A stretch of 64,000 nucleotides of DNA, from positions 1,551 to 65,550 of the forward strand of contig DAOTXW010000079.1 of the NCBI GenBank assembly GCA_034435035.1. The letters run 5' to 3'. The notes below the pieces were generated by a model. It made no database searches. It was not told the origin of the DNA and worked only from the letters and a program-made list of their open reading frames with translations. The translations under genes and the position numbers were made by a program. This stretch comes from Anaerolineae bacterium (GTDB taxonomy: Bacteria; Chloroflexota; Anaerolineae; Aggregatilineales; UBA3940). Each line of letters begins with the position of its first letter. Positions within the stretch are counted from its first letter, which is position 1. Positions 43,935 through 56,500 of this stretch are shown piece by piece.

Positions 43935-45758
43935 TCAGGGTGTAGTCTGCAGCGCCGGCTGCTTGTCGTGTTCTATGCCGGCCATCAGCAGCCCGAGTCG
44001 CTCGCGCGTTGCCTCGGAGGCAGGCATTTCTGCCACCAACTGACCATGGTAGATCACGATGATCCGGTCGGACAGAGACATAATCTCATCCAGCTCAGCC
44101 GAGACCAGCAGCACCCCGGCACCCGCATCGCGAGCCGCCACGATCTCGTTGTGGATGAACTCAATCGAGCCAATATCAAGGCCTCGGGTGGGCTGGCTGG
44201 CGATCAGGAGCCTGGGTTTACGCGTCAGTTCGCGAGCGACAATGACTTTCTGCTGATTGCCCCCGGAGAGGTTACCAGCCGGAATGAACAGGCTCGGTGT
44301 GCGGATGTCAAACTCGCTGATCAGCTGCTGGGCATGGTCAGCGATGTGCGCTTCGTCAAGGATGATGCCCTGGCTGAACGGTGGGTGGTAGTAATCAGAA
44401 AGGATCAGATTGTCTGCTACCGGGTAGGTTAGCACCAGCCCATAGCGCTGGCGATCTTCGGGAATATGCCCCGTGCCCAGGCTGGTCACCATGCGAGGCG
44501 GCCGCTGCGTGACATCCTGGCCCAGCACATGAATCGTACCGCCTTTGACCTCGCGCAGCCGCGTGATGGCTTCCACCAGCTCGGTCTGCCCATTGCCCTG
44601 CACCCCGGCTACCCCCACGATCTCGCCAGCTCGCAGTTGAAAGGATATTCCCTTAACAACCCGATGATGCCGATCGTCGTCAACCTGCAGGTTCTGCACA
44701 TCCAGCACCACATCTGTCGGGTTGGGCTCGGACTTGCGTACCTGGAGCAGCACTTCACGCCCGACCATCATGCGCGCCAGCGATTCACGCGTCGCTTCAG
44801 CCGGCACGGTCACTCCCACTACCTGCCCCCGGCGTAGCACGGTGATGCGATCTGCGATCGCCAGCACCTCCCGCAGTTTATGGGTGATGAAGATGATCGA
44901 GACTCCGCGCTCTGCCAGCCGCCGCATGACCTTGAACAGGTCGTCAGCTTCCTGCGGCGTGAGCACCGCAGTGGGTTCGTCGAGGATTAACACCTCCGCA
45001 TCACGGTACAGCGCCTTGATGATCTCGACGCGCTGCTGCGCCCCCACGGGCAAGGCACTGACCAGCGCCTGCGGGTTGACGTCCAGGCCGAATTCGCGTG
45101 ACAGAGCTTCGACGCGGCGGGCGACGCTCTGCTTGTCGAGCCAGCGCAGGTTGGCGATCCCGCCGATCAAGGCTCCAATCGCGGGCCAGGCCGGGATGGC
45201 AAACGGGCTGGCCAGCACCCTGCGTGAGAGGATCTCGTACAGCACGCCGAACCCGACTCCTGTCAGCACGCCCATCAGGAAGTGTCCGATCCGGAGCTTC
45301 AGCCTGAGAAGGCCCAGCAGCAGGTAGACGGCGGTGACGATCACCCAGTAGATAGCGGCAGGCATGCCGCCCAGCAGCCACGCTATCCCGCCTCCGATGG
45401 CAGCTGCGGCTGCCGCACTGAGCAGCACACTCCCTGTTGTCGTCTCTTCGCCGATCATGATGTTCTCAGTCACGGTCATGACGGGCACCAGCATGAAATG
45501 CTGGTGAACCATGCCAATGCCGTGGCGGATAGCATCGCGGGGATCATGAAATCGAACGACCTTGCCCCGGACCAAAATATCGCCTTCGTCCTGGTGGTAT
45601 AGACCGTACAGAATGTTCATCAGGGTGGATTTCCCCGCCCCGTTCTCGCCCAGCAGGGCATGAATCTCGCCCTTCTCAAGGGCATAATCGATCTCTCTGT
45701 TGGCGATGACTCCGGGGAATCGCTTGGTGATGCCTCGGGCTTCAATGACAGGGGTCAT
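43935..45758 (-). CDS. ABC transporter ATP-binding protein with duplicated NBDs and a hydrophobic insertion in NBD1
   Basis: NBD1: Walker A GENGAGKST, Q-loop HQHF, signature-region QQRVEI, Walker B LILDEPT. NBD2: LSGGNQQKV, LLIASQPTRGLD. Between NBD1 aa ~106 and ~206 lie about 4 hydrophobic helices absent from canonical homologues of ~510 aa. Confidence 0.9.
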   Translation of the reverse strand: MTPVIEARGITKRFPGVIANREIDYALEKGEIHALLGENGAGKSTLMNILYGLYHQDEGDILVRGKVVRFHDPRDAIRHGIGMVHQHFMLVPVMTVTENIMIGEETTTGSVLLSAAAAAAIGGGIAWLLGGMPAAIYWVIVTAVYLLLGLLRLKLRIGHFLMGVLTGVGFGVLYEILSRRVLASPFAIPAWPAIGALIGGIANLRWLDKQSVARRVEALSREFGLDVNPQALVSALPVGAQQRVEIIKALYRDAEVLILDEPTAVLTPQEADDLFKVMRRLAERGVSIIFITHKLREVLAIADRITVLRRGQVVGVTVPAEATRESLARMMVGREVLLQVRKSEPNPTDVVLDVQNLQVDDDRHHRVVKGISFQLRAGEIVGVAGVQGNGQTELVEAITRLREVKGGTIHVLGQDVTQRPPRMVTSLGTGHIPEDRQRYGLVLTYPVADNLILSDYYHPPFSQGIILDEAHIADHAQQLISEFDIRTPSLFIPAGNLSGGNQQKVIVARELTRKPRLLIASQPTRGLDIGSIEFIHNEIVAARDAGAGVLLVSAELDEIMSLSDRIIVIYHGQLVAEMPASEATRERLGLLMAGIEHDKQPALQTTP

Positions 45759-45913: not shown

Positions 45914-46984
45914 TTAATCCTCCCAGCCGGTGTCTACTGTGCCGGCAGCCAGGCCCTCACGCGCTGCGTCGACAGCATCCTTACATTCCTGAGGGATCTT
46001 GTCTTCCCAGTCGTGGTAGGGAGCCAGGCCCACACCGTTGTTGGCCACAGTTGCCAGGTTGACGCCTGCCTGGATCTCACCGGCCGCGAAGGCCTTGACG
46101 GCCTGGTTAGCCGCCACGTCCATGTTCTTGGCTGCGCTGGTCAGCAGCGACGAGGCTACTTCCGGATAGGTGAAATACTGGTCCACGTCAACGCCGATAG
46201 CCATCAGCCCGGCCTCATGCGCCGCCAGCAGACCGCCGTTGCCCGTGTTGCCGCCAACGCCGAAGATCACGTCGGCATTGTTCGCCAGCTGCTCCTGGCC
46301 TGCCTGCTTCCCGGTGGCCGGGTCGTTGAAGTCGGGGATGTAGACGTTCAGCGTCTCAACTTCGGGGTTCACCGAGCGGGCGCCGGTCTGGTAGCCGGTG
46401 ACGAACTTCTGTACCGGAGGGATTTCCATGCCCGAGACTGACCCGATGACGTTGGTCTCGGTCATGCAGCCAGCCAGCACCCCGGCCAGGTAGCCAACCT
46501 CGTCCTCGGCGAACATCAGACTGGTGACATTCGGCAGCACATCCGCGTAGCAGTCGTCCGTCACAGTCTCGGCATCCCCCAAGCACTTCCCGTCAGCATC
46601 CGGGAAGTAAGCAAAATCGATGATCGCGAAGTGCACATCCGGATGGGCCACAGCTGCCTTGGCTGTGGCATCGCCCATCAGGAAACCCACTGTGATGATC
46701 AGGTTGTAGCCTTCGCTCACGAAGTTCTCGATGTTTCGATCGTAGTCGGTTGGCGATTCAGACACAACGTAGGCGAAGTCCAGCCCGAGTTCTTCGGCAG
46801 CCTCGCGAGCGCCCTTGAGGGTGTATTCGTTGAAGCTGCGATCATTCTCGCCGCCGGTATCCAGTACCACCGCTATTCTAGCCTCGGCAGGCCCCTCTTC
46901 AGTGGCCGAGGTGGCTGTGCAGGCGCCCAGCAGCGCTGACAGCGCAAGCAGTACTGCAGCAAAAATCAGGATGCGCTTAGGCAT
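45914..46984 (-). CDS. BMP-family ABC substrate-binding lipoprotein (PnrA/Med/NupN-like)
   Basis: Signal peptide with Cys (LSALLGAC). Family blocks IAVVLDTGGENDRSFNE and GVDVDQY. Strong SD GGAGGAG 7 nt upstream. Confidence 0.9.
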   Translation of the reverse strand: MPKRILIFAAVLLALSALLGACTATSATEEGPAEARIAVVLDTGGENDRSFNEYTLKGAREAAEELGLDFAYVVSESPTDYDRNIENFVSEGYNLIITVGFLMGDATAKAAVAHPDVHFAIIDFAYFPDADGKCLGDAETVTDDCYADVLPNVTSLMFAEDEVGYLAGVLAGCMTETNVIGSVSGMEIPPVQKFVTGYQTGARSVNPEVETLNVYIPDFNDPATGKQAGQEQLANNADVIFGVGGNTGNGGLLAAHEAGLMAIGVDVDQYFTYPEVASSLLTSAAKNMDVAANQAVKAFAAGEIQAGVNLATVANNGVGLAPYHDWEDKIPQECKDAVDAAREGLAAGTVDTGWED

Positions 46985-47137
46985 GTCCTATTCTCCTCCA
47001 GGTCCTCAATGATAGGTAAAGAGTAGACTTGCCAACAGATTGCGTCGCAGTAGATCCAGACAATCTAGGAGCAGGCACCTCCTCGGGGACAGGGCTCGCC
47101 ATTCACTCAATTGCGAGCGAAGCGGAACGGCAAATCC

Positions 47138-47166
47138 AGTATAAGTCTCTTTTTGCCTGTGGGCAA
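47138..47166 (-). promoter_or_regulatory. Candidate sigma70-type promoter of the BMP ABC operon
   Basis: Minus-strand reading: TTGCCC, a 17-nt spacer, then TATACT. It predicts a ~145-nt leader before the ATG at 46984. It lies in the AT-richest stretch of the window. Confidence 0.4.
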
Positions 47167-47322
47167 GTACTCTGCTCTCTCAGATCAAATGCGACTCGCG
47201 CGATAGAGGAGGTCGCATGGATTCATGAGAACATTCTGCTGCCAGGACACTCGCAAGCTGCGAAAACGCAAATGCTCCCCGATCAATATATTTCTATATC
47301 AGAGTCTTGCAGTTAGTATGTG

Positions 47323-48990
47323 CTATGCTTCGCCAATGCGAATGCTGAGGGTTTCACTCCATGGGCCGGCGTGGCTGCCGGCAGTGGCCCGGATCCGGTA
47401 ATATAGCCGACCGGTCCGCCCCCACACCGGATGCCAGCGCGTGTCATCAGGCTTGACGCGGAACTCTTTCGCCGGGTTGAACCTCGGATTGTCAGCCTCC
47501 TGAATCTCGTAGCCACCTGCCCCCGGCGATTCCGACCACACCAGATGAGGTCGGTTGCGACTGTCCACGTGGCTGAGATCCAGCACCGGCCGGATCAGCC
47601 CGCCAACCGCTTCGCTCATATCCGCCGGTGCTGCATCGGATGACATATCCGGCCCGGGCTGCACAGGTGGCCGCTGATCCTGCTCACCCGCAGTACTAAC
47701 GCCTGATATCTGCTCAGACACCAACGTCTGGACAGCCGGTGAAGCCGGGAGGGATTCGCTGCTGCCGTTGCTTGCCGGGGCCGCATCCGGGCCGCCTGCC
47801 TGCGGCACTATCAGCGGGCGCCACTCCACCACTGGGCCGCTGATCGCAGGCGCCTCAATTGCAGTAGGTCCGGGAGGCGGTGTCGCTGACCCGATCGGCC
47901 GGCTGGGAATCCAGACGGGCAGAGTCTTCTGGGCGGGCATCGCAGCAGGCGCAGAACGCTGCGCCTCGGGCACCGTTGGAGCGAGAGGCTCAGCAGGAAG
48001 CGGCGAGACAGCTGGAGGCTCATCGGCCACAGCAGGGCTTCCACCCGGCAGGATAGGTTGCCAGTCGCTGACCACCCGCGACAGCGATTCGCGGTGGTAC
48101 AGCTCATTGATCACCTCGTACCAGGCTTTCATCGGCGGGCAGGCTTCGAGGTTTTCAGACGACCAGGCCTGTTCGAAAAGCTGTGCCAGCTGGCTGTGCA
48201 GGCCAGCCAGCACAGTATGCATCAGCTGGTAACGTGCGCAGTCCTGCTGCATCTCAGCAGCGCCGAAGAAGTGCTCCTCATCCGACTCTTTGCGGATACG
48301 CGGATCATGCCAGGCCGCCATCTCACTGATCAGGATCGCGCCTGCGAAGCGGTCGGCAGTTGGCTTCCATAAGCCCTGTGAGGCTGTGCGGTGCGCATAG
48401 CCGTCTGTACCGGCTGGCAGCGCTGCCGGCGGCATAAAATCAGGTGAGTAAAGGTCCTCCACATCGATCAGATGCGCTCGCCGGGTAGTACCGTTGATGA
48501 TGACATTCGGCCCGGCGATATCACAATGCGCCAGGCCTGACTCCTCCAGCGCAGACAGCACTTGGGCAGTCGCATTGGCAAAGGTCAGTGCATCCAGCCG
48601 GTTCAAAGGCGTGGCATTGATCACCATATCATACCAGGTCGAGCCGGTGATCCACGGCATCAGCACGGCATATTCAAGATCAGGGTAGTCCTCGAGCACG
48701 TCATCGTGCCTGCCATAGTGCAGACACTCACGTGCACACACCTCAAGGCCGGGCCACTGGGAGAAGCGAGCCAGCGCGTCACATACATTCACCAGCTCCT
48801 GCAGGCGATAGGCTTCTTTGAACTTCTTGAGCGCATACAGCCCTCCGTCAGAGCCGGAGACCTGATAAACAAACGCCTTGCGCCCTTCCTGGCCAAACGC
48901 AAACCGAGGTACTGAGGGATGCGGTCTGATTTGGTAAACCTGCCCACCGATCACGATCCGGTCATTGGGGTCCGGGTTGAATGCTTTCAT
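47323..48990 (-). CDS. Atypical Ser/Thr protein kinase-like protein with Pro-rich linker and one C-terminal FN3-like module (soluble)
   Basis: Kinase-core residues: YALKKF (beta3 Lys), LAHCDIAGPNVII (HRD-like HCD plus Asn), LIDVEDLY (DFG-like DVE). The C-terminal 85 aa read W..SPGAGGYEIQ...RLYYRIRA...GPWS (FN3-like). Start taken at MKAFNPDPN (48990; GAGGAA upstream), which aligns with the paralog start MFNPTLG. The ORF-track start is 49077. Confidence 0.7.
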   Translation of the reverse strand: MKAFNPDPNDRIVIGGQVYQIRPHPSVPRFAFGQEGRKAFVYQVSGSDGGLYALKKFKEAYRLQELVNVCDALARFSQWPGLEVCARECLHYGRHDDVLEDYPDLEYAVLMPWITGSTWYDMVINATPLNRLDALTFANATAQVLSALEESGLAHCDIAGPNVIINGTTRRAHLIDVEDLYSPDFMPPAALPAGTDGYAHRTASQGLWKPTADRFAGAILISEMAAWHDPRIRKESDEEHFFGAAEMQQDCARYQLMHTVLAGLHSQLAQLFEQAWSSENLEACPPMKAWYEVINELYHRESLSRVVSDWQPILPGGSPAVADEPPAVSPLPAEPLAPTVPEAQRSAPAAMPAQKTLPVWIPSRPIGSATPPPGPTAIEAPAISGPVVEWRPLIVPQAGGPDAAPASNGSSESLPASPAVQTLVSEQISGVSTAGEQDQRPPVQPGPDMSSDAAPADMSEAVGGLIRPVLDLSHVDSRNRPHLVWSESPGAGGYEIQEADNPRFNPAKEFRVKPDDTRWHPVWGRTGRLYYRIRATAGSHAGPWSETLSIRIGEA

Positions 48991-49040
48991 AAACTGGGCT
49001 TCCTCAAACGACTCGCAGCCATCCTCGAGTGGAGGGATGG

Positions 49041-51833
49041 CTACGCCATGATATCCACAGAGAGAGCATCGCTCCACAGGCTGTACTCACCCTGATCATC
49101 AACCGACCTCACGCGAAAGTAGTAACGCCCTGCTTCGTGAGGCCCCATCTCAAACTTCTGCACCGGGTGGAAAATCCTCTGCGTCCCCATAGTCAGTGAA
49201 GTGAACTCCGGACTGGCTGACTCCTGTAGCTCGTAATAGACACACCCCGGCAGGCCGTGCCAGGTGATCTCGAAGGGAATGGCCGCCTTCACCGGACCAG
49301 GGCCCCAGAGAGTTGGCGGCGCAGGGCGGCTTACCTGCACCGAGACAGGTTGGCTTGGCTGCCCTACCTGTGTGCGATCCGCAGCCTTAACGCGGAACCA
49401 GAAGCGCCCGCTGGTAGGAGCATTATAGGTGATGGCGGTTTCGTTCAGCGGGATCGTGGCGACTGTATCGACAAACGCCTCATCACGGGCGACTTCCAAC
49501 ACATAATGCGTTGCGCCGCTGACCGGCCCCCAGCCCAGATGGACAGCATGGGGCTTCTCAAGTGCATGATCGACCAGCACCGGCGCCCCGGGTGCCGCCC
49601 TCAGAATCAGCACATCACCGGACTGCCAGGCGCCCGGCACGCCTGACACTTCAGCCCGAACCCGGAACTGCACCGCATCCAGCCCTGACGGCCTTGCCAT
49701 CTCAAACTGAGTATCCCCACCCTGGTAAACCGTCACACCACCCGCCTCTTCCCGGGCAGGATCGAGCATCTCGACGCAGTAGGCAACCCGCCCGCCAACC
49801 GATCCCCATGACACGGCCAGGCGCCGCCCGCCCTCAGTCAGGGTTGTTTCCATCCACCCTGGCATCCCGGGTGCTATGGTAATGGTGGATACATTGCTCC
49901 AGGGCCCCTGACCGCTGCTGTTTGAGCCGCAGACTCGCACAAACAGCATGCCCGGCTCGCGTCTGGCAATCTCCATAGTAGTGTCGGCTTCAACATGCAC
50001 ACGGGCATTGCGAAAGCCACTGTCATCGGCTGTCTCGATAATGTACTCATCTGCTCCGGGGACCGCAGACCATTGCAGGTGGATCATCTGCAGGGTATCC
50101 GGACCCTCGATGCTTAGCTCAGGCGCTGAGGCCGGCGCAGGCGGGGCAATCGCCAGCATCTGCTCATTGCTCCACTCGCTGCAGGCATAATCGTTGCAGG
50201 CCCGAACCCGAAAGACAAATTGGCCAACGCCAAGTTCCGGCAGCGTGTAGAGGGTGTCCGTCAGCGAGATGATTGATTCCTCGCCGCTGTCTCGGCTCAC
50301 CTGCTGCAGCTCATAGCGGACAGCTCCCGGCACCGGCTGCCAGCGCAGTTCGACAGAGGCCCCGAACGAATAGCGCCCCATAGCCAGGTGGGGACGTGGC
50401 GGTGGTGGAATGCGGACCTCAACCGCCTGTGTGCTGCTCCAGGGCCCCGGCCCGCCGTCCGATATGGCTCGAACCCGATAGAAGAGATGCCCGGGCTCGG
50501 TGCTCGCCAGCGGAATGCTCCAGGATGTGCTCCGCCCGGCGTAGACGATCTCAGGCTCGCGGAAATCCGGATCACGCGCCTGTTCCAGCGTATACTCCAG
50601 TGAATCACCCTCTGCCGACCAGTTCAGGATCGGGGAGCGATCAGCATCAGACAGGCTGATCTGTGGCGCAGGGGGTGGCGGATAGGCCACCCGCGTCTGC
50701 CGCAGCTCACTCCACGGCGACATCCCGCCATGACGCCTAACTGCCCGGACGCGATAGTAATAGTGCCCCGGCGCTGGCGGAAAAGAGGGCCGCCATGTAG
50801 TTCCAGGGCCCGGCACTTCAATCACCTGTGAATCCGCGAGGGCGGGGTTGGTTGTCTGCTGGATCACGAAGCGATCGCGGTCCGAACCTTTCCAGTTCCA
50901 GCGCAGCTCATAATTACTGGCGCCGGTCGGGTTCCAGATCTGTTCTAGCCAGGGGCATTCAGCATTGGGATCCGGCATGGAGGGATCTGTATGGCCTTCA
51001 TACAGAGGTGTCCGCAAAACCACGTCGATGAAAGCCACGTCATCACTGGTCGGCAGCCGTGCGCCGGCATGAATCTCCCGGTCGAGCTGGCTGTCCCCAT
51101 AGTCCAGCACTTTGCTGGAATGAGTGCTCAGGCCATCGGTGAAGGCCGCGATGCGGCTTATTCCCGCCATCTCGCCCATCCAGGCATTCATCTGACCTTT
51201 GGTGCCATGAACGGTTGACCAGCGGTTGCTGTTGTCCCAGACGCCACCGATATCGACGGGTTTTCCCTCCTCATCACGCACATGGACCTGGGTGTCGCCC
51301 ATCCAGCAAAGCGAAACGAGGCCTTCCGGGAATAGAGGACCCGGATGGTCAATGCGGGCTGCGGCGAAGATCGCCTCACTGCCGTAGGCGCGCTGGGCCT
51401 CCAATGCCTGCCTGACCAGCCCCGATATTTCATCCGGGATCTGATAAGCAGCGACTTCGTGCTGAGCCTGCTTCTGCAGACGGTTGAGATAGCTGGATGC
51501 TGCTTCGCTCAGAGCCATAGCACCACCCAGGTACGCCACTTCAAGCGCCCAGAGCCACTCAAGCAGCCCGTCGCCGAGAATCCGCGCAGCCAGATTGCCA
51601 CAGAATGACGAGCCCACTCCGTCGCACACAACGAATACCAGCCGTTGATCATTGTGCTGGAAGCAGAGATAATCCTGCCCTTCGATCTGGCTGCTCATGC
51701 TGTCGCTGGAGCGCGAGTAGGCATAGCGGATATAAGCGCCGGGCACCGAGACAAAAGACACCCCGGTCTCTATAGTCTGCGGCACGCGCTGCGTGCGGAT
51801 CGGTACAACCTCAGAACGTCCGGGGAAGTTCAT
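49041..51833 (-). CDS. PP2C-like phosphatase fused to seven FN3-like modules (no signal peptide or TM seen)
   Basis: PP2C motifs in order: GQDY, VVCDGVGSSF, WMGDTQVHV, FTDGLS, SDDVAFIDVV. They are followed by 7 repeats each ending in [YF]xx[RV]V[RKC][AG]...W[SQ]. Start taken at MNFPGRSEV (51833), which overlaps the upstream kinase stop by 23 nt. The ORF-track start is 51911. Confidence 0.7.
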   Translation of the reverse strand: MNFPGRSEVVPIRTQRVPQTIETGVSFVSVPGAYIRYAYSRSSDSMSSQIEGQDYLCFQHNDQRLVFVVCDGVGSSFCGNLAARILGDGLLEWLWALEVAYLGGAMALSEAASSYLNRLQKQAQHEVAAYQIPDEISGLVRQALEAQRAYGSEAIFAAARIDHPGPLFPEGLVSLCWMGDTQVHVRDEEGKPVDIGGVWDNSNRWSTVHGTKGQMNAWMGEMAGISRIAAFTDGLSTHSSKVLDYGDSQLDREIHAGARLPTSDDVAFIDVVLRTPLYEGHTDPSMPDPNAECPWLEQIWNPTGASNYELRWNWKGSDRDRFVIQQTTNPALADSQVIEVPGPGTTWRPSFPPAPGHYYYRVRAVRRHGGMSPWSELRQTRVAYPPPPAPQISLSDADRSPILNWSAEGDSLEYTLEQARDPDFREPEIVYAGRSTSWSIPLASTEPGHLFYRVRAISDGGPGPWSSTQAVEVRIPPPPRPHLAMGRYSFGASVELRWQPVPGAVRYELQQVSRDSGEESIISLTDTLYTLPELGVGQFVFRVRACNDYACSEWSNEQMLAIAPPAPASAPELSIEGPDTLQMIHLQWSAVPGADEYIIETADDSGFRNARVHVEADTTMEIARREPGMLFVRVCGSNSSGQGPWSNVSTITIAPGMPGWMETTLTEGGRRLAVSWGSVGGRVAYCVEMLDPAREEAGGVTVYQGGDTQFEMARPSGLDAVQFRVRAEVSGVPGAWQSGDVLILRAAPGAPVLVDHALEKPHAVHLGWGPVSGATHYVLEVARDEAFVDTVATIPLNETAITYNAPTSGRFWFRVKAADRTQVGQPSQPVSVQVSRPAPPTLWGPGPVKAAIPFEITWHGLPGCVYYELQESASPEFTSLTMGTQRIFHPVQKFEMGPHEAGRYYFRVRSVDDQGEYSLWSDALSVDIMA
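49044..50960 (-). repeat. Coding tandem array of seven ~85-90-aa FN3-like modules
   Basis: Module ends read HYYYRVRAV, LFYRVRAIS, FVFRVRACN, LFVRVCGSN, VQFRVRAEV, FWFRVKAAD and YYFRVRSVD. Each is preceded by W..(V)PGA..Y.L/I and followed by (P)W(S). The repeats diverge at the DNA level. Confidence 0.65.
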
Positions 51834-53022
51834 GATGTTTGTTTGCCCACCACATGATGCTTGCCAGCGGCAGACCCAGTGCTGCCGCGCCCGTCCCGCA
51901 CGGAAGGACATCTTGAATGGCCGACCACTCGAGGGCCAGCCCGGTCACCACACAGCATGCCAGCCCGACTACGCCTGCAATGACGAAGGCGCGTAAACAC
52001 CCCTCCAGCCGCGAGCGAGGGCCGCGCCCCGCCGCCAGCCCGGGGGCCGCCCCGGAAGCGGTTCTTACAGGGTCCGCTGCGGGCTCGACAAAGATGCGAG
52101 TGTCGATCGGCGCCCACTTCGCTACCGGCGCACGCGGCAGGGCATCCAGCAGATCGTACCATGTTTTCAAAGGTGGGCAGGATTCCAGGGATTGAGCCCA
52201 CCAGGTCTCCTCAAAGAGCTCCGCAAAACCCGCATCGTAGACCTGCAGGGCACGACACAGAATGTCGAAGCGCTCGCTTGGCTGCTGCAGCTCACTCGGG
52301 GCGAAGTAGCTCTCCCCGTAGGCGTTTTTTCGGACGTCGGGATGCGGCCAGCTGAGCATCTCAGCCATCAGGATAGCCCCGGCAAATCGATCTCCCAACG
52401 GCCCCCACTGCCCGGTTTTAACGACCTGAGAGTGCTGATAGCCGCTTGAGCCTGCGGGCACCATCGGGGGAGGCGTAAGCCACGGGCTGTACAGATCTTC
52501 TACGTCCACCAGATGTATCTGGTCAAGCCGCGGGTCGATAATCACGTTGCCGCTGGAGAGGTCGCAGTGAGCCAGGCTGTTGAGCTCCAGCGCGTGCAGC
52601 ACCCAGGCCATGCTCTCCGCCACGGCGCGGCCCTGATCCAGCGTCAGACGCTGGCGGTGATTCAGATAGTCAAACCAAGTCTTGCCCTCAATCCAGGGCA
52701 TTACCATAGCATAATTGAGATCCTCATACTCCGCGACCAGATCGGGAAATGACTCGGCAGTGATGATGGCCTGCTGGCAAACTCGCATCCCCGGCAGTTC
52801 ATGATAGGTCCACAGTGCCTGTGCCGTGCTGAGCAGCCCTTCATGCCGGAAAGCCGGCTTGAAGACCTTCAGTGCATAGTCTTCGCCGTGATCCTGCATC
52901 CGGTAAACAATCGCATGCCGGCCTTCCTGCCCCCAGACGAGTGAAGGAGCTGCCGGGTGCGGAGCAAAGCGATATTCTCGCCCATTGATGATAAGCCGTG
53001 TTCCAAGAGTTGGGTTAAACAT
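51811..53022 (-). CDS. Atypical Ser/Thr protein kinase-like protein, C-tail membrane-anchored (paralog of 47323-48990)
   Basis: YALKVF, LAHCDLSSGNVII and LVDVEDLY, collinear with the other kinase. The C-terminus has two hydrophobic helices (AFVIAGVVGLACCVVTGLAL; AAALGLPLASIMWWA). Confidence 0.7.
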   Translation of the reverse strand: MFNPTLGTRLIINGREYRFAPHPAAPSLVWGQEGRHAIVYRMQDHGEDYALKVFKPAFRHEGLLSTAQALWTYHELPGMRVCQQAIITAESFPDLVAEYEDLNYAMVMPWIEGKTWFDYLNHRQRLTLDQGRAVAESMAWVLHALELNSLAHCDLSSGNVIIDPRLDQIHLVDVEDLYSPWLTPPPMVPAGSSGYQHSQVVKTGQWGPLGDRFAGAILMAEMLSWPHPDVRKNAYGESYFAPSELQQPSERFDILCRALQVYDAGFAELFEETWWAQSLESCPPLKTWYDLLDALPRAPVAKWAPIDTRIFVEPAADPVRTASGAAPGLAAGRGPRSRLEGCLRAFVIAGVVGLACCVVTGLALEWSAIQDVLPCGTGAAALGLPLASIMWWANKHHELPRTF

Positions 53023-53048
53023 AATCTCAAGCTACCGCTGGCTCTTGT

Positions 53049-54260
53049 TCAGGCAGGCGGCTTCGGCTCCGGCGACGAGTGCCCCTCCCCGCCAGCCGCC
53101 TGCTCATCAATCAACCGTTCCAGCATCAGCATAGCGAGCGCCGCGCTTGTCAGCCCCAGCAGAGCAGCCTGCTGCCAGACCTGGATCTGCTGCTGAGTCG
53201 AGATGCCGCCGCTACCCGCACTCGGCCGTCGAGTCGATTCAGAAAGCGGGCGCCATTCCTGCACCGCAGGACTACTGGCCGGCGGCTCGGCGCGGATTGG
53301 TTCGATGCCGGTCACCGGCGTGCGAGGCTTCTCATCGATTACAATGGGCCCTGTATATTCGGAGACGAAGAATACTGGCTCAGTATCGGGCGGCCTGATG
53401 GCGGCTGGCAGCGCCAGAATCCGCCGGGCGTCCGGTGTGTCGGTCGCTCCGACGGTCTGCGGGCTGTAGGCTAACCTCACATCGAACAGAGAGGCATCGT
53501 CCGCCGGCGGATTCTGCTGCCAGCGCGCCATCAGATCAGCCAGGTCTGCATCCGTTGGCACATGTCCGGTCGACAGGCCATCCGTGTAGCCAGCCACCCG
53601 GGCCACCTTGTGGCTGCTACCAATCCATGTGTGTATCTGGCCCTTGACGCCGGTGGTCGCATTCCAGCGTTCCGAGGTGTGGCCATGTGGGCCCAGATCC
53701 AGCAGCTGCCCGTCAATGTCGATTGCAGCAACAGGCGCATCGCCCAACCAGCATAGGGCTACCAACGGATCATCCCCGTCCAGTGACAGCCGGCCCGCCA
53801 CAAACATCGCCTCGCTGCCATATTGTCGCTGCATCTCCAGTGCCTGCACCAGTATTGGTGGCAGATGGTCAGGCAGCTGGTAGGCCGATACATGATGGGC
53901 TGAAGCTATGGCTGCTTCATTGAGCGACTCAGTTACCTGTCGGCTAAATGCATCGGCATCGGATGGGCGAGACGCGCTCCACAGCCAGCTAACGAGATGG
54001 TCGCCCAGCAGTCTGGCTGCCAGATCGCCCATGAAGGATTGGCCGACCCCGTCACAGACAGCAAATGCCAGGCTGGCTGCTCCATACCGGAACGCCACGT
54101 AGTCCTGACCCACTGTTCTGCTGCTGACGCTGTCAGCCGAGCGCACATACAGGTACAACACCGTGCCAACCGGCGTCTTAAGCGGGGTCAGAGGCGTTTC
54201 GGTATCCTGTGGTAGGCTAACCTGGCCTTCCGGATGGTCTGGTTGCTGGGCTTTAACCAT
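53049..54260 (-). CDS. PP2C-like phosphatase, C-tail membrane-anchored (paralog of the N-terminal domain of 49041-51833)
   Basis: GQDY, AVCDGVGQSF, WLGDAPVAAI, YTDGLS and ADDASLFDV motifs. A Pro-rich linker precedes one C-terminal TM (AALLGLTSAALAMLML). Confidence 0.7.
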   Translation of the reverse strand: MVKAQQPDHPEGQVSLPQDTETPLTPLKTPVGTVLYLYVRSADSVSSRTVGQDYVAFRYGAASLAFAVCDGVGQSFMGDLAARLLGDHLVSWLWSASRPSDADAFSRQVTESLNEAAIASAHHVSAYQLPDHLPPILVQALEMQRQYGSEAMFVAGRLSLDGDDPLVALCWLGDAPVAAIDIDGQLLDLGPHGHTSERWNATTGVKGQIHTWIGSSHKVARVAGYTDGLSTGHVPTDADLADLMARWQQNPPADDASLFDVRLAYSPQTVGATDTPDARRILALPAAIRPPDTEPVFFVSEYTGPIVIDEKPRTPVTGIEPIRAEPPASSPAVQEWRPLSESTRRPSAGSGGISTQQQIQVWQQAALLGLTSAALAMLMLERLIDEQAAGGEGHSSPEPKPPA

Positions 54261-54301
54261 GAATTACTGTGCCTTGCTGCCGGTGGGACGCGGTTGCCAA
54301 A

Positions 54302-54334
54302 CAGGCGGGCAGGGAAGCTCGCCCTACCCGCCTG
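54302..54334 (-). promoter_or_regulatory. GC-rich intercistronic hairpin between the vWA and PP2C genes
   Basis: 13-bp stem caggcgggcaggg / ccctacccgcctg (one G-U pair) with a 7-nt loop, in the 114-nt gap. On the minus strand it is followed by TTTGG. It could be an attenuator or an RNA stability/processing element. Confidence 0.35.
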
Positions 54335-54374
54335 CCGGGAGGTGTCATACTGCCTGCCAGAGGGCGACGGTGTT

Positions 54375-55139
54375 CTACGGCGTCACCGGGGTAACCGGTG
54401 TCGCACCGCTCATTGCAAAGCCAAGCTCGACAATGGCTGGCTCGTTACCCGGGAAGAACATCCGCGCCCCGGGAGAGAGCCGATAGCCCATCTCGGCCAT
54501 CACGCTGCCGTAGGTCGGCGGAATAGTTGAAGACATCCGGAATAGCGTCTCCGCATAGGGAGAGGCCAGCGGCGTTTCATCTGTGACGCCATCCCATCCC
54601 TTCGGATCGGCGATCGTCTGGGTCAGTGCCTTATCTGTCACAAAGATATTCTCGATCAGCACATTGCCATCCGGGACGGCCATCTGCATGATACGCCGGG
54701 CAATCGGCTCCGGATCGCCGCCGCTGTTGTACTCACCATCGGTCATGTGGCACACCAGCGGGGCCGGGCAATCCTGCAGATTACCAAGCTCAGCGGCCAG
54801 CAGGCGCTCGGCCTCGCGGAAAGCCGCCGCGGTATCCGTAGCGTCCATCGGCTGCAGGCGCGGCACACCCATCTGCGCCAGCTCGGCAACCGTCTTGATC
54901 CCACCGAGCAGGTCGGTCACCTGCGAGCTGTACGCATACATAGCAATCCGATAGCGGGGCGCGACTGTGGTGCCCTTGGTGCTGCGCTGAACCATCCGGA
55001 CGGCTACTTGGTGCAGGGCGTCTGAGACCACCTCGATCTTGGTCTTACCCCCCAGATCCTCGCCCATCGAGCCGCTGACATCCAGAAGATAGATGATCAG
55101 CGCAGGCGTTTTGCTCGTAGCAGGTACAGTATATGGCAT
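54375..55139 (-). CDS. von Willebrand factor A (vWA) domain protein, TerY-like, cytoplasmic
   Basis: MIDAS DVSGSM (DxSxS), plus a downstream Thr and HMTDGE. No signal or TM. Start taken at MPYTVPATS (55139), preceded by GGAAAGAGGGG. The ORF-track start is 55211. Confidence 0.8.
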   Translation of the reverse strand: MPYTVPATSKTPALIIYLLDVSGSMGEDLGGKTKIEVVSDALHQVAVRMVQRSTKGTTVAPRYRIAMYAYSSQVTDLLGGIKTVAELAQMGVPRLQPMDATDTAAAFREAERLLAAELGNLQDCPAPLVCHMTDGEYNSGGDPEPIARRIMQMAVPDGNVLIENIFVTDKALTQTIADPKGWDGVTDETPLASPYAETLFRMSSTIPPTYGSVMAEMGYRLSPGARMFFPGNEPAIVELGFAMSGATPVTPVTP

Positions 55140-55274
55140 GGCGTTACCCCTCTTTCCTCGCGAATATTCATAACTGTGATGGATGTCCGGCCGCTGCCGG
55201 CGCGTCATCACTTTCTATTACGCGGATTAGTCTGGATCGTTTCAACTCTCGCCAGTCTGGGCCAGCCAGCATAT

Positions 55275-55709
55275 TCAGCCTTCGGCCAGTGCCGGCTCAT
55301 AGGCTGCCATCCTCTCGCGCCATGCAGCCGGGATAGGGATGGCGACCGACCGAATGTAGTCGTAAGCCACCTGCACTGTGCTGCCTTCGGCTGCCACTGC
55401 GCCGTCTCCCTCGCGGATCAGGGTATATGTGAAATCGAAACTCTTACCGCCCAGCCGCGAGGCGCGCAGATAGACCCGCACGCGGTCGCCAAATATCAGT
55501 GGGAGCTTGTACTGGCAGGTAGCCTGGGCGATAATCACGCCCAGCTCGCTCAGGTGCCCATCCCAGCCGATGACCTCCTTTGCATAGTGCAGGCGAGCTG
55601 TCTCCATGTAGGTGAAGTACTTGGCATTGTTAACATGCTGGAGCACATCCAGGTCAGCATACCGGACATCGATCAGGTAGGAGAAGCGGTAAGCGGACAG
55701 ATCAGTCAT
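55275..55709 (-). CDS. Acyl-CoA thioesterase, 4HBT/YbgC-like hotdog fold
   Basis: VRYADLDVLQHVNNAKYFTYMETARLHY is the family-typical N-terminal catalytic block; 144 aa. Confidence 0.75.
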   Translation of the reverse strand: MTDLSAYRFSYLIDVRYADLDVLQHVNNAKYFTYMETARLHYAKEVIGWDGHLSELGVIIAQATCQYKLPLIFGDRVRVYLRASRLGGKSFDFTYTLIREGDGAVAAEGSTVQVAYDYIRSVAIPIPAAWRERMAAYEPALAEG

Positions 55710-55828
55710 AGGCGCCTCGAATCAGGTAGCAGCAGGTGGTATTATTGCATGCCATCTTCATGATTCTAGCATAAGTCGGCTTTACGCCGCCTGTGCAGCC
55801 ATTACCATGACAGAGGGAGAACAAAACC

Positions 55829-56500
55829 GTGGCCAGAAGTCTCAACGAGCTTCAGCAGCAGCTTGCCAGCTACGACTGGAAGGTGCGCGCCCGGGCTGTC
55901 GACAGCCTGAGCGAAGCGCGCGATCCCAGAGCAATTCCGGCCTTGACTGAAGCGCTCGCAGATGAGAGCCAGTTTGTGCGGATGGCGGCCGCGAGGGGTC
56001 TGGGGACCATCGGCGACGCTAAAGCACTGCCCTCTCTGATCGCCGCTCTGGATGATCCGGTATTCATGGTGCGTCAGAATGCTCTCTGGGCACTGGGCGA
56101 GATTGGAGACCCCGGGGCAATCCCGGCTCTTCAGCAATTTGTCAATGACGGGACCATGTTTGCAGAGCGCTCCATTACCGTTGGCCGTCTGGCACAGCTG
56201 GCCATCGACCGCATCCATGCAGCAGTTGAAGCGGCACAGACAGCTTCTGCATCAGCAGCAGCGGCTCCCACCGAAGGCGGCGGGTTGACCCCCGAGGAGC
56301 GTGCCGCCAAGCGAGCCGCAGCGCTGGCGCGCAAGGCAGGCAGGGCAGAATCTGGCGATACCCCGTCAGAAGCCTCGCCGCCGGCTCCCAGCAGCCTCGC
56401 TCCCGCTGAAGGCGGTGGGCTTAGCGCCGAAGAGCGCGCCGCCAAACGCGCCGCGGCTCTGGCCCGCAAGGCAGCCGCCAAGAAAGGCGGCGAGGGCTAG
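55829..56500 (+). CDS. HEAT-repeat (PBS-lyase HEAT-like) protein with duplicated basic C-terminal motif
   Basis: At least 3 HEAT-like units (VRARAVDSLSEARDPRAIPAL / VRMAAARGLGTIGDAKALPSL / VRQNALWALGEIGDPGAIPAL). Then comes a twofold AP(T/A)EGGGL(T/S)xEERAAKRAAALARKA repeat. GTG start. Confidence 0.7.
   Translation: MARSLNELQQQLASYDWKVRARAVDSLSEARDPRAIPALTEALADESQFVRMAAARGLGTIGDAKALPSLIAALDDPVFMVRQNALWALGEIGDPGAIPALQQFVNDGTMFAERSITVGRLAQLAIDRIHAAVEAAQTASASAAAAPTEGGGLTPEERAAKRAAALARKAGRAESGDTPSEASPPAPSSLAPAEGGGLSAEERAAKRAAALARKAAAKKGGEG

Follow-up and report, generated by a model that had tools for sequence, protein, structure and literature searches.

A vWA-phosphatase-kinase array with a doubled enzyme pair in Anaerolineae: a putative phospho-switch related to TerY-P and T7SSc modules

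In this work we asked what a single vWA protein encoded beside two PP2C phosphatases and two Ser/Thr kinases might do in an Anaerolineae bacterium, and to which of the known vWA-PP2C-kinase systems such a locus belongs. Triads of this kind span tellurite/conflict islands, CoCoNuT restriction, T7SSc and E. coli yegL-pphC-yegI. By analyzing a 64-kb stretch of DNA (the window) together with related loci, we find that the doubled array elaborates, in an as yet undescribed form, a switch known from T7SS clusters, anti-phage systems and E. coli. Its new details are a hairpin conserved 3' of the vWA gene, a common EWRPL linker motif and a vWA protein at 90% median identity. The lineage offers a natural dissection of the switch: one hub stands beside two enzyme pairs that differ in location, and no machine is encoded alongside.

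Layout of the array and its proteins

Analysis of open reading frames (ORFs) placed five co-oriented genes on the minus strand at 47323-55139, in the order MIDAS-vWA, PP2C with a TM segment (PP2C1), kinase with TM segments (KIN1), PP2C with seven FN3 modules (PP2C2), and kinase with a Pro-rich linker and one FN3 module (KIN2) (Table 1). Gene calling on the source contig, done independently, returned the identical five genes. The co-oriented genes, the gaps of 26 nt and 50 nt and the 23-nt overlap that an earlier note on this DNA had described were all confirmed. These spacers lie between PP2C1 and KIN1, PP2C2 and KIN2, and KIN1 and PP2C2, respectively, and their size suggests that the five genes are co-transcribed. 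The vWA-PP2C1 spacer, of 114 nt, was absent from the gap list of that note. A scan of 46900-55900 for consensus promoters and terminators gave counts no better than chance, and RNA folds of the two flanks, before the vWA gene and past KIN2, did not improve on shuffles.

Table 1. Coordinates of the array and of its features within the window.
Feature	Position	Strand	Details and evidence
vWA (TerY/TscE-type, cytoplasmic)	54375..55139	-	254 aa; VWA_2, PADLOC TerY, AF2/Foldseek
MIDAS motif D-V-S-G-S, aa 20-24	55068..55082	-	invariant among 50 homologues
vWA C-terminal tail M-S-G-A-T-P-V-T, aa 243-250	54390..54413	-	column conservation, low pLDDT
GC-rich stem-loop, ~14-15 bp, in vWA-PP2C1 spacer	54302..54336	-	RNA fold and clade conservation
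PP2C1 (PP2C-TM)	53049..54260	-	403 aa; PPM phosphatase aa ~46-285; PP2C_2
PP2C1 linker motif V-Q-E-W-R-P-L	53244-53264	-	motif conservation
PP2C1 C-terminal hydrophobic anchor	53109-53177	-	hydropathy; sequence conserved
KIN1 (kinase-TM)	51811..53022	-	403 aa; Hanks-type Ser/Thr kinase aa 1-310; Pkinase
KIN1 strong TM	51925-51996	-	hydropathy
KIN1 weaker second hydrophobic segment	51847-51909	-	hydropathy
PP2C2 (PP2C-FN3)	49041..51833	-	930 aa, start = M27 of long ORF; PPM phosphatase aa 1-275
PP2C2 seven FN3 modules	49044-50948	-	repeat HMM, AF2 model, Foldseek
KIN2 (kinase-Pro-FN3)	47323..48990	-	555 aa; kinase aa 1-320; KIN1 paralogue
KIN2 Pro/Ala/Ser-rich linker	47587-48030	-	20% Pro
KIN2 linker motif V-V-E-W-R-P-L	47812-47832	-	motif conservation
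KIN2 C-terminal FN3	47326-47586	-	one FN3 in each orthologue (repeat HMM)

The vWA protein, whose ATG start codon is preceded by GAGGAAAGAGGGG, was assigned to its family by VWA_2 of Pfam (1.9e-7) and TerY of PADLOC (7.7e-27); close homologues are called 'YegL' in their source records. Its MIDAS is complete (D20-x-S22-x-S24 with T101 and D134), and all five residues are invariant in 50 homologues. A sequence search against the PDB gave no match, so a fold search was needed; the AF2 model (pLDDT 91) returned Foldseek matches to vWA folds at ~1e-8, ArnB of Sulfolobus among them. Hydropathy revealed no hydrophobic segment. The protein ends in a family-specific C-terminal extension of ~80 aa followed by a disordered tail, with a mean pLDDT of 57 over the last residue block. 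In this tail T247 is invariant and the other columns of aa 243-250 are invariant or near-invariant in the 50 homologues; on sequence grounds, T247 is a candidate phospho-acceptor.

Both phosphatases match PP2C_2 of Pfam (PP2C1, 2.4e-8; PP2C2, 1.2e-8) and are 40% identical over their domains (E 3e-53); the metal-binding Asp residues of PP2C1 are conserved. KIN1 matches Pkinase (Pfam, 2e-8), and its catalytic loop aligns to Bud32/TP53RK in a PDB alignment. KIN2 has no Pfam match, and its assignment comes from paralogy with KIN1 (41% identical, E 3e-81) and from matches to PADLOC kinase models. The K, HxD, N and DFG-equivalent D of KIN1 are kept in 17-18 of 18 orthologues and the catalytic residues of KIN2 in 15 of 15, and each of the four enzyme groups, like the family at large, keeps its catalytic residues. 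As judged from these residues, KIN1, KIN2, PP2C1 and PP2C2 are all catalytically intact. In NJ trees the two PP2C clades are sisters, but the clade of KIN2 clusters with FN3-bearing kinases from loci L021, L022 and L024, so that the trees agree only partly with a simple tandem duplication; the FN3 pair may instead have been acquired from an L021/L022-like triad.

The two pairs differ in their predicted location. From hydropathy, the only basis for membrane segments here, PP2C1 has one moderate hydrophobic segment (score 1.69) and KIN1 a strong (2.54) and a weaker one (1.56), whereas neither the vWA protein, PP2C2 nor KIN2 has a membrane segment after its catalytic domain, and PP2C2 has no signal-like segment. 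Pair 1 (PP2C1 and KIN1) thus has C-terminal hydrophobic anchors, essentially without an ectodomain, and pair 2 (PP2C2 and KIN2) is soluble. Since anchoring of both enzymes in the membrane is the usual state in the vWA-PP2C-kinase family, the FN3-decorated soluble pair is the unusual part of the array. PP2C2 matches fn3 (Pfam, 6.3e-8), and a repeat HMM counts seven FN3 modules in it against a single one in KIN2. The AlphaFold model of PP2C2 (pLDDT 85) consists of the PP2C domain and seven beta-sandwiches, and its Foldseek matches include FN3 arrays of titin, gp130 and fibronectin, with E down to 2.5e-25. The length of PP2C2 is constant (924-945 aa) down to 39% identity. The linker of PP2C1 is unconserved except for its V-Q-E-W-R-P-L motif, the Pro-rich linker of KIN2 is a disordered tether, and V-x-E-W-R-P-L is common to both linkers.

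The earlier note had proposed most of these assignments from the letters alone. The cytoplasmic vWA protein with a MIDAS (VWA_2, TerY, invariant MIDAS, no hydrophobic segment), the seven and one FN3-like modules (repeat HMM, AlphaFold model, Foldseek) and the paralogy of the PP2C domains and of the kinase domains (~40% identity each) were all borne out. Profile searches of Pfam upheld the vWA protein, both PP2Cs and KIN1, but not KIN2, for which KIN1 paralogy and PADLOC had to serve.

Conservation and kinship of the triad

Doubling of the enzyme pair is real, old and conserved. The five-gene layout, always with seven plus one FN3 modules, is found in ~20 species-level Anaerolineae MAGs, and the clade comprises 21 loci from different Anaerolineae MAG species, of which 15 are complete and 6 are truncated or rearranged. 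The earlier claim of one TerY-type vWA protein with a doubled enzyme pair holds, the doubling being syntenic across these loci and the exact layout with its seven plus one FN3 modules occurring in the 15 complete ones. That note did not recognise the architecture as described, and we found no published description either. The genes inserted into the cluster of L009 and of L003 turned out to be unrelated cargo (a HEAT/cNMP-binding protein, methyltransferases) and not T7SS genes.

We further surveyed loci retrieved by the vWA protein alone, fetching ~80 species loci of the 260 species with matches. Synteny of vWA, PP2C and kinase holds around the vWA homologues in these ~80 loci, and the adjacency spans Chloroflexota, Bacillota, Longimicrobium and Entotheonella. 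This synteny disfavours the view that unrelated eukaryote-like kinase/phosphatase pairs lie beside a vWA gene by chance and have no common function. Bacterial Hanks kinases and PP2Cs often adjoin, and the Pfam scores are all modest; however, the adjacency is kept across those taxa, Hanks kinases occur fused to close homologues of the vWA protein (P0325, P0332), and 15 species share one order of the five genes, which makes coincidence very improbable.

The closest relatives of the vWA protein (52-56% identical) are the TscE proteins of T7SSc-type loci in Paenibacillus and Brevibacillus, loci that also encode an FHA-less EssC, WXG100, EspG-like and YukD-like proteins, a membrane kinase and a PPM phosphatase. 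The T7SSc core, TscA-G, consists of a WXG100 protein (TscA), a YukD-like protein (TscB), an FHA-less EssC ATPase (TscC), a membrane Ser/Thr kinase (TscD), a cytoplasmic vWA protein (TscE), a PPM phosphatase (TscF) and an EspG-like protein (TscG) (Garrett et al., microLife 2024, PMC11217815). The earlier note had limited the kinship to TerY-P and did not consider TscE/TscF/TscD, the closest relatives by vWA identity. In agreement with this core set, 23 of 60 non-clade loci, and 6 more in weaker form, have EssC, WXG100, YukD or EspG genes next to the triad or within it. In L066, L070 and L075, EssC and WXG100 genes sit between PP2C and kinase, and one kinase-vWA fusion is encoded in a T7SS locus that also has genes for a PP2C and another kinase. 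T7SS linkage is also seen in the Chloroflexota loci L043, L045, L051, L053, L059 and L063. T7SSc-type clusters with the triad thus exist in Chloroflexota, whereas the full text of the defining paper places T7SSc only in Bacillota and leaves Chloroflexota unmentioned (PMC11217815). In L084, a 253-aa gene after an EssC-kinase fusion was rejected as a vWA relative.

[quoted passage not shown] It is conceivable, if doubtful, that the five genes are the TscE/TscF/TscD equivalents of a T7SSc-like system elsewhere in the genome, gating secretion of WXG100, LXG or Rhs-type proteins, and the vWA identity, the linkage in Chloroflexota, the interposed EssC/WXG100 genes and the fusion within a T7SS locus all favour this. 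However, EssC, WXG100, YukD, EspG and the 129-aa family were absent from the 64-kb window (phmmer and family HMMs), EssC, WXG100, YukD and EspG from the 10 kb around the 21 clade loci, and T7SS genes from the fetched DNA of 31 non-clade loci, many of them on short contigs. TscA, TscB, TscC and TscG genes are accordingly missing from window and clade loci. The window's only FtsK-family ORF (1-2490) was rejected as a T7SS ATPase, being a housekeeping FtsK with alpha and gamma domains. As weak evidence, a Chloroflexota EssC searched against a large protein database had none of its best 120 matches on contigs that equal known clade contigs in length or bear Kow00124 locus tags. The array further departs from T7SSc in having two kinase-phosphatase pairs where T7SSc has one, tail-anchored kinases without the ectodomain typical of TscD, one phosphatase anchored in the membrane and the other carrying seven FN3 modules, and a Chloroflexota host. 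Within the DNA examined, the 64-kb window and the clade loci, the best reading is a switch detached from T7SS genes.

TerY-P triads offer the second comparison. Their phosphorylation-switch logic was proposed by Anantharaman, Iyer and Aravind in 2012 (as cited in PMC11090510), and a TerY-P triad with a kinase-OB fusion has been reported to act as a stand-alone defence against T7-like phages (Gao et al. 2020, as cited in PMC11090510 and PMC7699616). Like them, the present array unites a TerY-type vWA protein, PP2C and Ser/Thr kinase in one operon. By analogy, infection might shift phosphorylation of the vWA protein and bring about growth arrest or death. The protection against T7-like phages, the PADLOC match to TerY and the matches of the kinases to the STK_OB, PD-T4-6, MkoA and PglW kinase models are consistent with such an anti-phage or abortive infection role, as are TIR-vWA and CHAT-vWA fusions among very close vWA homologues, on contigs too short to show neighbours; one TIR-vWA gene adjoins an integrase fragment. 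We nevertheless consider the defence role unlikely. The PADLOC kinase matches are restricted to the generic catalytic core, that to STK_OB covering only positions 106-216 of 562, and PP2C1 and PP2C2 match no PADLOC model. TerY-P kinases are fused C-terminally to a zinc ribbon (PMC11090510), which also occurs in related triads with a single pair, L040 for instance, whereas KIN1 and KIN2 have neither OB fold nor zinc ribbon by Pfam and PADLOC. None of the five genes encodes a recognisable effector domain. Where upstream DNA exists, it holds syntenic housekeeping genes (4HBT thioesterase, HEAT protein, Dtd). The vWA gene is the most conserved of its neighbourhood, with a median identity of 90% across clade species; the value for D-Tyr-tRNA deacylase is 79% and that for the four enzymes 53-60%. 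Conservation above that of housekeeping neighbours is unusual for a fast-turnover defence island. The array also differs from the known TerY-P triads in its duplicated enzyme pair and in the absence of Ter, CoCoNuT and restriction genes within 10 kb.

In E. coli, the two-pass membrane kinase YegI is a substrate of the phosphatase PphC (YegK), and the vWA gene yegL adjoins (bioRxiv 10.1101/303594, 10.1101/819920). The gene order, vWA, PP2C, kinase, is that of our array, and the two-pass topology of YegI is the one suggested for KIN1, yet E. coli has a single pair and no FN3. BLASTP of YegL, PphC and YegI against the window proteins gave no significant pairwise similarity, and hhalign of YegL to vWA profiles gave a weak match (70.8% probability over only 51 columns). 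The E. coli proteins are therefore probably analogues or very remote relatives rather than orthologues. Together with the anti-phage triad of Gao et al., the YegL/PphC/YegI biochemistry outdates the statement in the earlier note that the class lacks experimental characterisation. The interpretation in that note is thus partly supported, as a TerY-P-class triad but not of an uncharacterised class; its ideas of sub-functionalised pairs and of one vWA partner for both stand as proposals.

Two further systems resemble the array in mechanism. In Sulfolobus, the cytoplasmic vWA protein ArnB is a substrate of Hanks-type kinases and its complex state shifts on phosphorylation; with the FHA/zinc-ribbon protein ArnA, the kinases ArnC and ArnD and the phosphatase PP2A it controls archaellum expression (PMC6509490, PMC12852372). 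That system is archaeal, however, and has neither PP2C nor an operon-level triad, so the likeness is in mechanism only. In T6SS, a membrane Ser/Thr kinase and a PP2C likewise gate a machine post-translationally, with a vWA domain in the module. The vWA domain of PpkA of the T6SS is periplasmic. Threonine phosphorylation, set by the membrane kinase and the PP2C phosphatase together with an FHA protein, gates the secretion machine (PMC11217815). Unlike our array, T6SS is Gram-negative, has its vWA as a periplasmic kinase domain and uses an FHA readout.

A proposed two-input switch

We consider it probable that the locus encodes a reversible Ser/Thr phospho-switch of the TerY-P/T7SSc-TscDEF class, with two inputs onto one vWA hub. 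In this model the vWA protein would be a common docking platform, a phospho-substrate, or both, with T247 as candidate site; the precedent for a vWA protein as kinase substrate is ArnB/ArnC (PMC6509490, PMC12852372). The kinases would turn the vWA protein on and the PP2Cs would reset it, and each phosphatase probably acts on its cognate kinase as well, in the manner of PphC on YegI. The membrane pair would report a membrane-proximal state, and the FN3 pair would tie this chemistry to a rigid scaffold or to a large partner in the cytoplasm. Conservation of V-x-E-W-R-P-L suggests a common docking peptide that would cross-wire both pairs and possibly give a Glu to the MIDAS metal. The output is the least certain step. 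Because of the orthology with T7SSc, the switch would most likely control how an export or conflict machine at the membrane assembles or works; in the Anaerolineae lineage that machine would be encoded away from the switch. Should the switch prove autonomous in this lineage, the triad would be a portable regulatory cassette and not a dedicated secretion component. A more speculative idea, to which we give little weight, is that in this lineage the triad no longer depends on a secretion or restriction machine and has become a two-channel cytoplasmic scaffold (a membrane-anchored pair, a soluble pair on a fixed-length seven-FN3 'ruler', a MIDAS-vWA hub and EWRPL docking). It would then control a housekeeping process of these filamentous bacteria, for instance the state of envelope or septum or a regulated form of cell death, and neither phage defence nor T7 secretion.

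The invariant tail threonine, the common EWRPL motif and the intercistronic hairpin provide testable handles on the two-input switch. Lying 3' of the vWA gene, the hairpin would uncouple vWA abundance from enzyme abundance. It is probably an intercistronic attenuator or RNA-stability element; alternatively, it could be a full terminator, in which case the array would form two transcripts. Folded whole (126 nt), the vWA-PP2C1 spacer is not significant (z = -1.2), and the local hairpin and its conservation alone stand out: a strong hairpin is present in this spacer in 20/20 clade loci although their sequences differ, and it reaches -28 kcal/mol or lower in 14 of these 20, compared with 3% of random 175-nt windows.

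The five-gene array and its enzymes

The array consists of a vWA protein, a phosphatase with a predicted C-terminal membrane segment (PP2C1), a predicted membrane kinase (KIN1), a phosphatase with FN3 modules (PP2C2) and a kinase with a linker and an FN3 module (KIN2). The earlier note had described five co-oriented minus-strand genes, and both the open reading frames and a separate gene prediction for the public source contig bear this out. From vWA to KIN2 the genes are separated by 114 nt, 26 nt, a 23-nt overlap and 50 nt; the last three spacings had been read correctly and the first is added here. Profile searches supported every domain assignment: the vWA protein matches VWA_2 at 1.9e-7 and the PADLOC TerY model at 7.7e-27, PP2C1 and PP2C2 match PP2C_2 (2.4e-8 and 1.2e-8), and KIN1 matches Pkinase (2e-8). 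KIN2 had no Pfam match in this search, and its assignment comes from PADLOC kinase models and from an alignment of 312 residues with KIN1 at 41% identity (E 3e-81). Between PP2C1 and PP2C2 the phosphatase domains share 40% identity (E 3e-53). Both pairs are paralogous, as proposed.

A repeat HMM counted seven FN3 modules in PP2C2 and one in KIN2, as first claimed, and in the AlphaFold model of PP2C2 (pLDDT 85) seven beta-sandwiches come after the PP2C fold, with the FN3 arrays of titin, gp130 and fibronectin as fold matches. Hydropathy agrees with the proposed membrane segments, namely one moderate C-terminal segment in PP2C1 and two in KIN1, one strong and one weaker; no such segment was found in vWA, PP2C2 or KIN2. 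The KIN2 linker is indeed proline-rich (20%). Across 86 aligned kinase domains and 91 aligned PP2C domains of related loci, KIN1 orthologues, KIN2 orthologues and the wider family keep the kinase Lys, HxD, Asn and DFG-equivalent Asp, and the PPM metal-binding aspartates (QD, DG, GD, TDG, DD) are likewise conserved. Judged from sequence, pseudo-enzyme status looks unlikely for all four enzymes. KIN1 can also be aligned with the catalytic loop of Bud32/TP53RK (PDB).

Features of the array and its surroundings
Feature	Position	Strand	Remarks
FtsK ORF	1-2490	+	housekeeping; truncated by window edge; FtsK_alpha, FtsK_SpoIIIE, FtsK_gamma domains
ABC ATPase, tandem-NBD	43935-45758	-	adjoins Bmp-type lipoprotein
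Hydrophobic insertion in ABC ATPase	about 45126-45443		aa 106-211
KIN2	47323-48990	-	
V-x-E-W-R-P-L in KIN2	47812-47832		aa 387-393
V-x-x-W-x-P-I after the kinase domains	48052-48072 and 52105-52125		related motif, one after each kinase domain
PP2C2	49041-51833	-	
KIN1	51811-53022	-	
PP2C1	53049-54260	-	
PP2C1 C-terminal hydrophobic anchor	53109-53177		
V-x-E-W-R-P-L in PP2C1	53244-53264		aa 333-339
Stem-loop	54302-54336	-	GC-rich, ~14-15 bp; within 114-nt vWA-PP2C1 spacer
vWA gene	54375-55139	-	254 aa; good ribosome-binding site
HEAT-repeat protein	55829-56500	+	

Distribution and conserved elements

Searching with the vWA protein, one genome per species, we found relatives in 260 species and fetched loci for 80 of these. 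The window-type array recurs in 21 Anaerolineae/Chloroflexota MAG species (vWA identity at least 87%; clade loci), being complete in 15 and rearranged or cut by contig ends in the other 6. The doubled pair and the FN3 fusions are syntenic in the complete loci, with seven FN3 modules in PP2C2 and one in KIN2 in 15/15. In a large protein database, PP2C-7xFN3 proteins as distant as 39% identity are still 924-945 aa long; the module number is therefore under constraint. Unrelated cargo interrupts the array in two related MAGs (L009, 12225-18978; L003, 3964-6032), comprising a HEAT and cNMP-binding protein, methyltransferases and proteins that match nothing in Pfam; in a third locus, L017, a kinase gene is inverted.

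Outside the clade, as a rule just one PP2C and one kinase follow the vWA (single triads). An Entotheonella locus (L022) has two PP2Cs, three or four kinases and FN3 modules, and five others (L024, L045, L050, L053, L068) have two or three kinases each, some bearing TPR, periplasmic-binding-protein or FGE-sulfatase ectodomains. Since a hydrophobic anchor terminates both enzymes in most single triads, membrane anchoring is the norm for such a pair, and what is unusual here is the soluble pair with FN3 modules. In neighbour-joining trees without support values, the PP2C1 and PP2C2 clades are sisters, and KIN2 clusters with FN3-bearing kinases of L021, L022 and L024; on these sequences, the second pair may have arisen by duplication or acquisition. 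While the vWA-PP2C-kinase triad is already known, the conserved form with a tail-anchored pair, PP2C-7xFN3, kinase-linker-FN3 and one vWA appears to be new: we found no description of it, nor had the earlier note recognised one.

The vWA gene is the most conserved of the neighbourhood, with a median identity of 90% across clade species, compared to 79% (Dtd), 62% (thioesterase) and 53-60% (the four enzymes of the array). Its model (AlphaFold, pLDDT 91) has a vWA fold, a C-terminal extension of ~80 residues that is peculiar to the family, and a tail modelled with low confidence, M-S-G-A-T-P-V-T, that includes T247, invariant among 50 homologues. The spacer behind this gene contains a strong hairpin in 20/20 clade loci, with differing sequences, and its energy is -28 kcal/mol or lower in 14 of the 20 compared to 3% of random windows; in single triads the reading frame of PP2C adjoins or overlaps that of vWA. 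The hairpin probably acts as an attenuator or stabiliser between cistrons. The PP2C1 and KIN2 linkers, otherwise unconserved, have in common a V-x-E-W-R-P-L island, conserved at 80% or more among clade orthologues, and we regard it as a candidate docking motif common to the two proteins, one a membrane phosphatase and the other a soluble kinase. The PP2C1 anchor also keeps its sequence (QQAALxGLTSAALAM at 80% or more in 18 orthologues), far above the KIN1 anchor, which may mean that it makes a specific contact with another helix and is more than a passive tether.

Relatives and possible targets

The triad belongs to the broader TerY-P class, as the earlier note held, but it has closer and better-studied relatives than were named there. 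When all ORFs of the fetched loci were clustered, genes of type VII secretion came to light next to the triad: a triple-FtsK EssC ATPase (1.9e-75), WXG100 (4e-17), EspG-like and YukD. EssC or at least two such markers occur in 23/60 non-clade loci, and YukD or WXG100 only in 6 more; in L066, L070 and L075, PP2C and kinase genes flank EssC and WXG100. The Paenibacillus/Brevibacillus-type clusters, in which the Paenibacillus EssC has no FHA domains, are the seven-component T7SSc of Garrett et al. (PMC11217815), where TscE is a cytoplasmic vWA protein, TscF a PPM phosphatase and TscD a membrane Ser/Thr kinase whose active site is conserved. The window vWA shares 52-56% identity with its counterparts in these loci. 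Garrett et al. place T7SSc in Bacillota only and do not mention Chloroflexota; we observed T7SSc-type clusters with triple-FtsK EssC, WXG100, YukD, EspG-like and the triad in Chloroflexota MAGs (L043, L045, L051, L053, L059, L063). Separately, four EssC ATPases of 1634-1703 aa (P0207, P0214, P0218, P0222) end in a Hanks kinase domain, in T7SS loci without this vWA (L084, L085); this is an independent fusion tying Ser/Thr phosphorylation to the T7SS ATPase.

The orthology with T7SSc raises the idea that the switch targets a T7SSc-like machine encoded elsewhere. We found no T7SS genes in the 64-kb window or within 10 kb in any of the 21 clade loci, and none of the best 120 matches of a Chloroflexota EssC search lay on a contig matching those of the clade, which is weak evidence; we consider this idea rather doubtful. 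The window's only FtsK-family ORF was considered as EssC and rejected, its alpha and gamma domains marking a housekeeping FtsK.

Passages of PMC11090510 and PMC7699616 credit the TerY-P prediction to Anantharaman et al. 2012, describe CoCoNuT systems that contain the triad with a kinase-zinc-ribbon fusion, and cite a kinase-OB TerY-P as a stand-alone anti-phage system (Gao et al. 2020). The vWA family is compact (190 clusters at 50% identity and E <=1e-30, among 1.84 billion representatives), and several of its close members carry a fused Hanks kinase, TIR, CHAT or zinc-ribbon domain. An anti-phage or abortive role would fit such company; within 10 kb of the array there are no genes of Ter, restriction or effector type, and we hold this role to be unlikely. 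The individual fusions, very close to the window vWA (profile E between 1e-79 and 1e-110), carry TIR (P0324, P0343, P0082), CHAT (P0327, P0367), a Hanks kinase (P0325, P0332) or zinc ribbons (P0323). P0325 is encoded in L088, a T7SS locus that also has FHA-EssC, two genes for WXG100, a PP2C gene and another kinase gene.

A proposed two-input phospho-switch

We favour, with some reserve, a reversible phospho-switch with two inputs and one vWA hub. What is established is that its components exist and are intact, that they constantly occur together, and that they are predicted to lie in different places. The vWA protein would be docking platform, substrate or both, for which ArnB/ArnC offer a precedent of a vWA phospho-substrate (PMC6509490, PMC12852372), and T247 would be the best candidate phosphosite. 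The PP2Cs may reset vWA and their own kinases, by analogy with PphC acting on YegI; E. coli yegL-pphC-yegI has the gene order of the window triad, and YegL, PphC and YegI have no significant sequence similarity to the window proteins. The EWRPL motif could serve as a docking peptide shared by PP2C1 and KIN2, and the hairpin could set the stoichiometry of vWA versus enzymes. The output is the weakest step: orthology suggests that the switch would act on an export or conflict machine associated with the membrane.

We also think it unlikely that the array is, in this lineage, a housekeeping switch that works autonomously. Upstream of it lie genes for a 4HBT thioesterase, a HEAT protein, a 287-aa protein and Dtd, and their synteny extends to 5-8 clade loci. 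The HEAT-repeat protein itself has a C-terminal region with two near-identical copies of GGL(T/S)(P/A)EERAAKRAAALARKA, and the tandem-NBD ABC ATPase has a hydrophobic insertion of ~105 aa inside its first nucleotide-binding domain.
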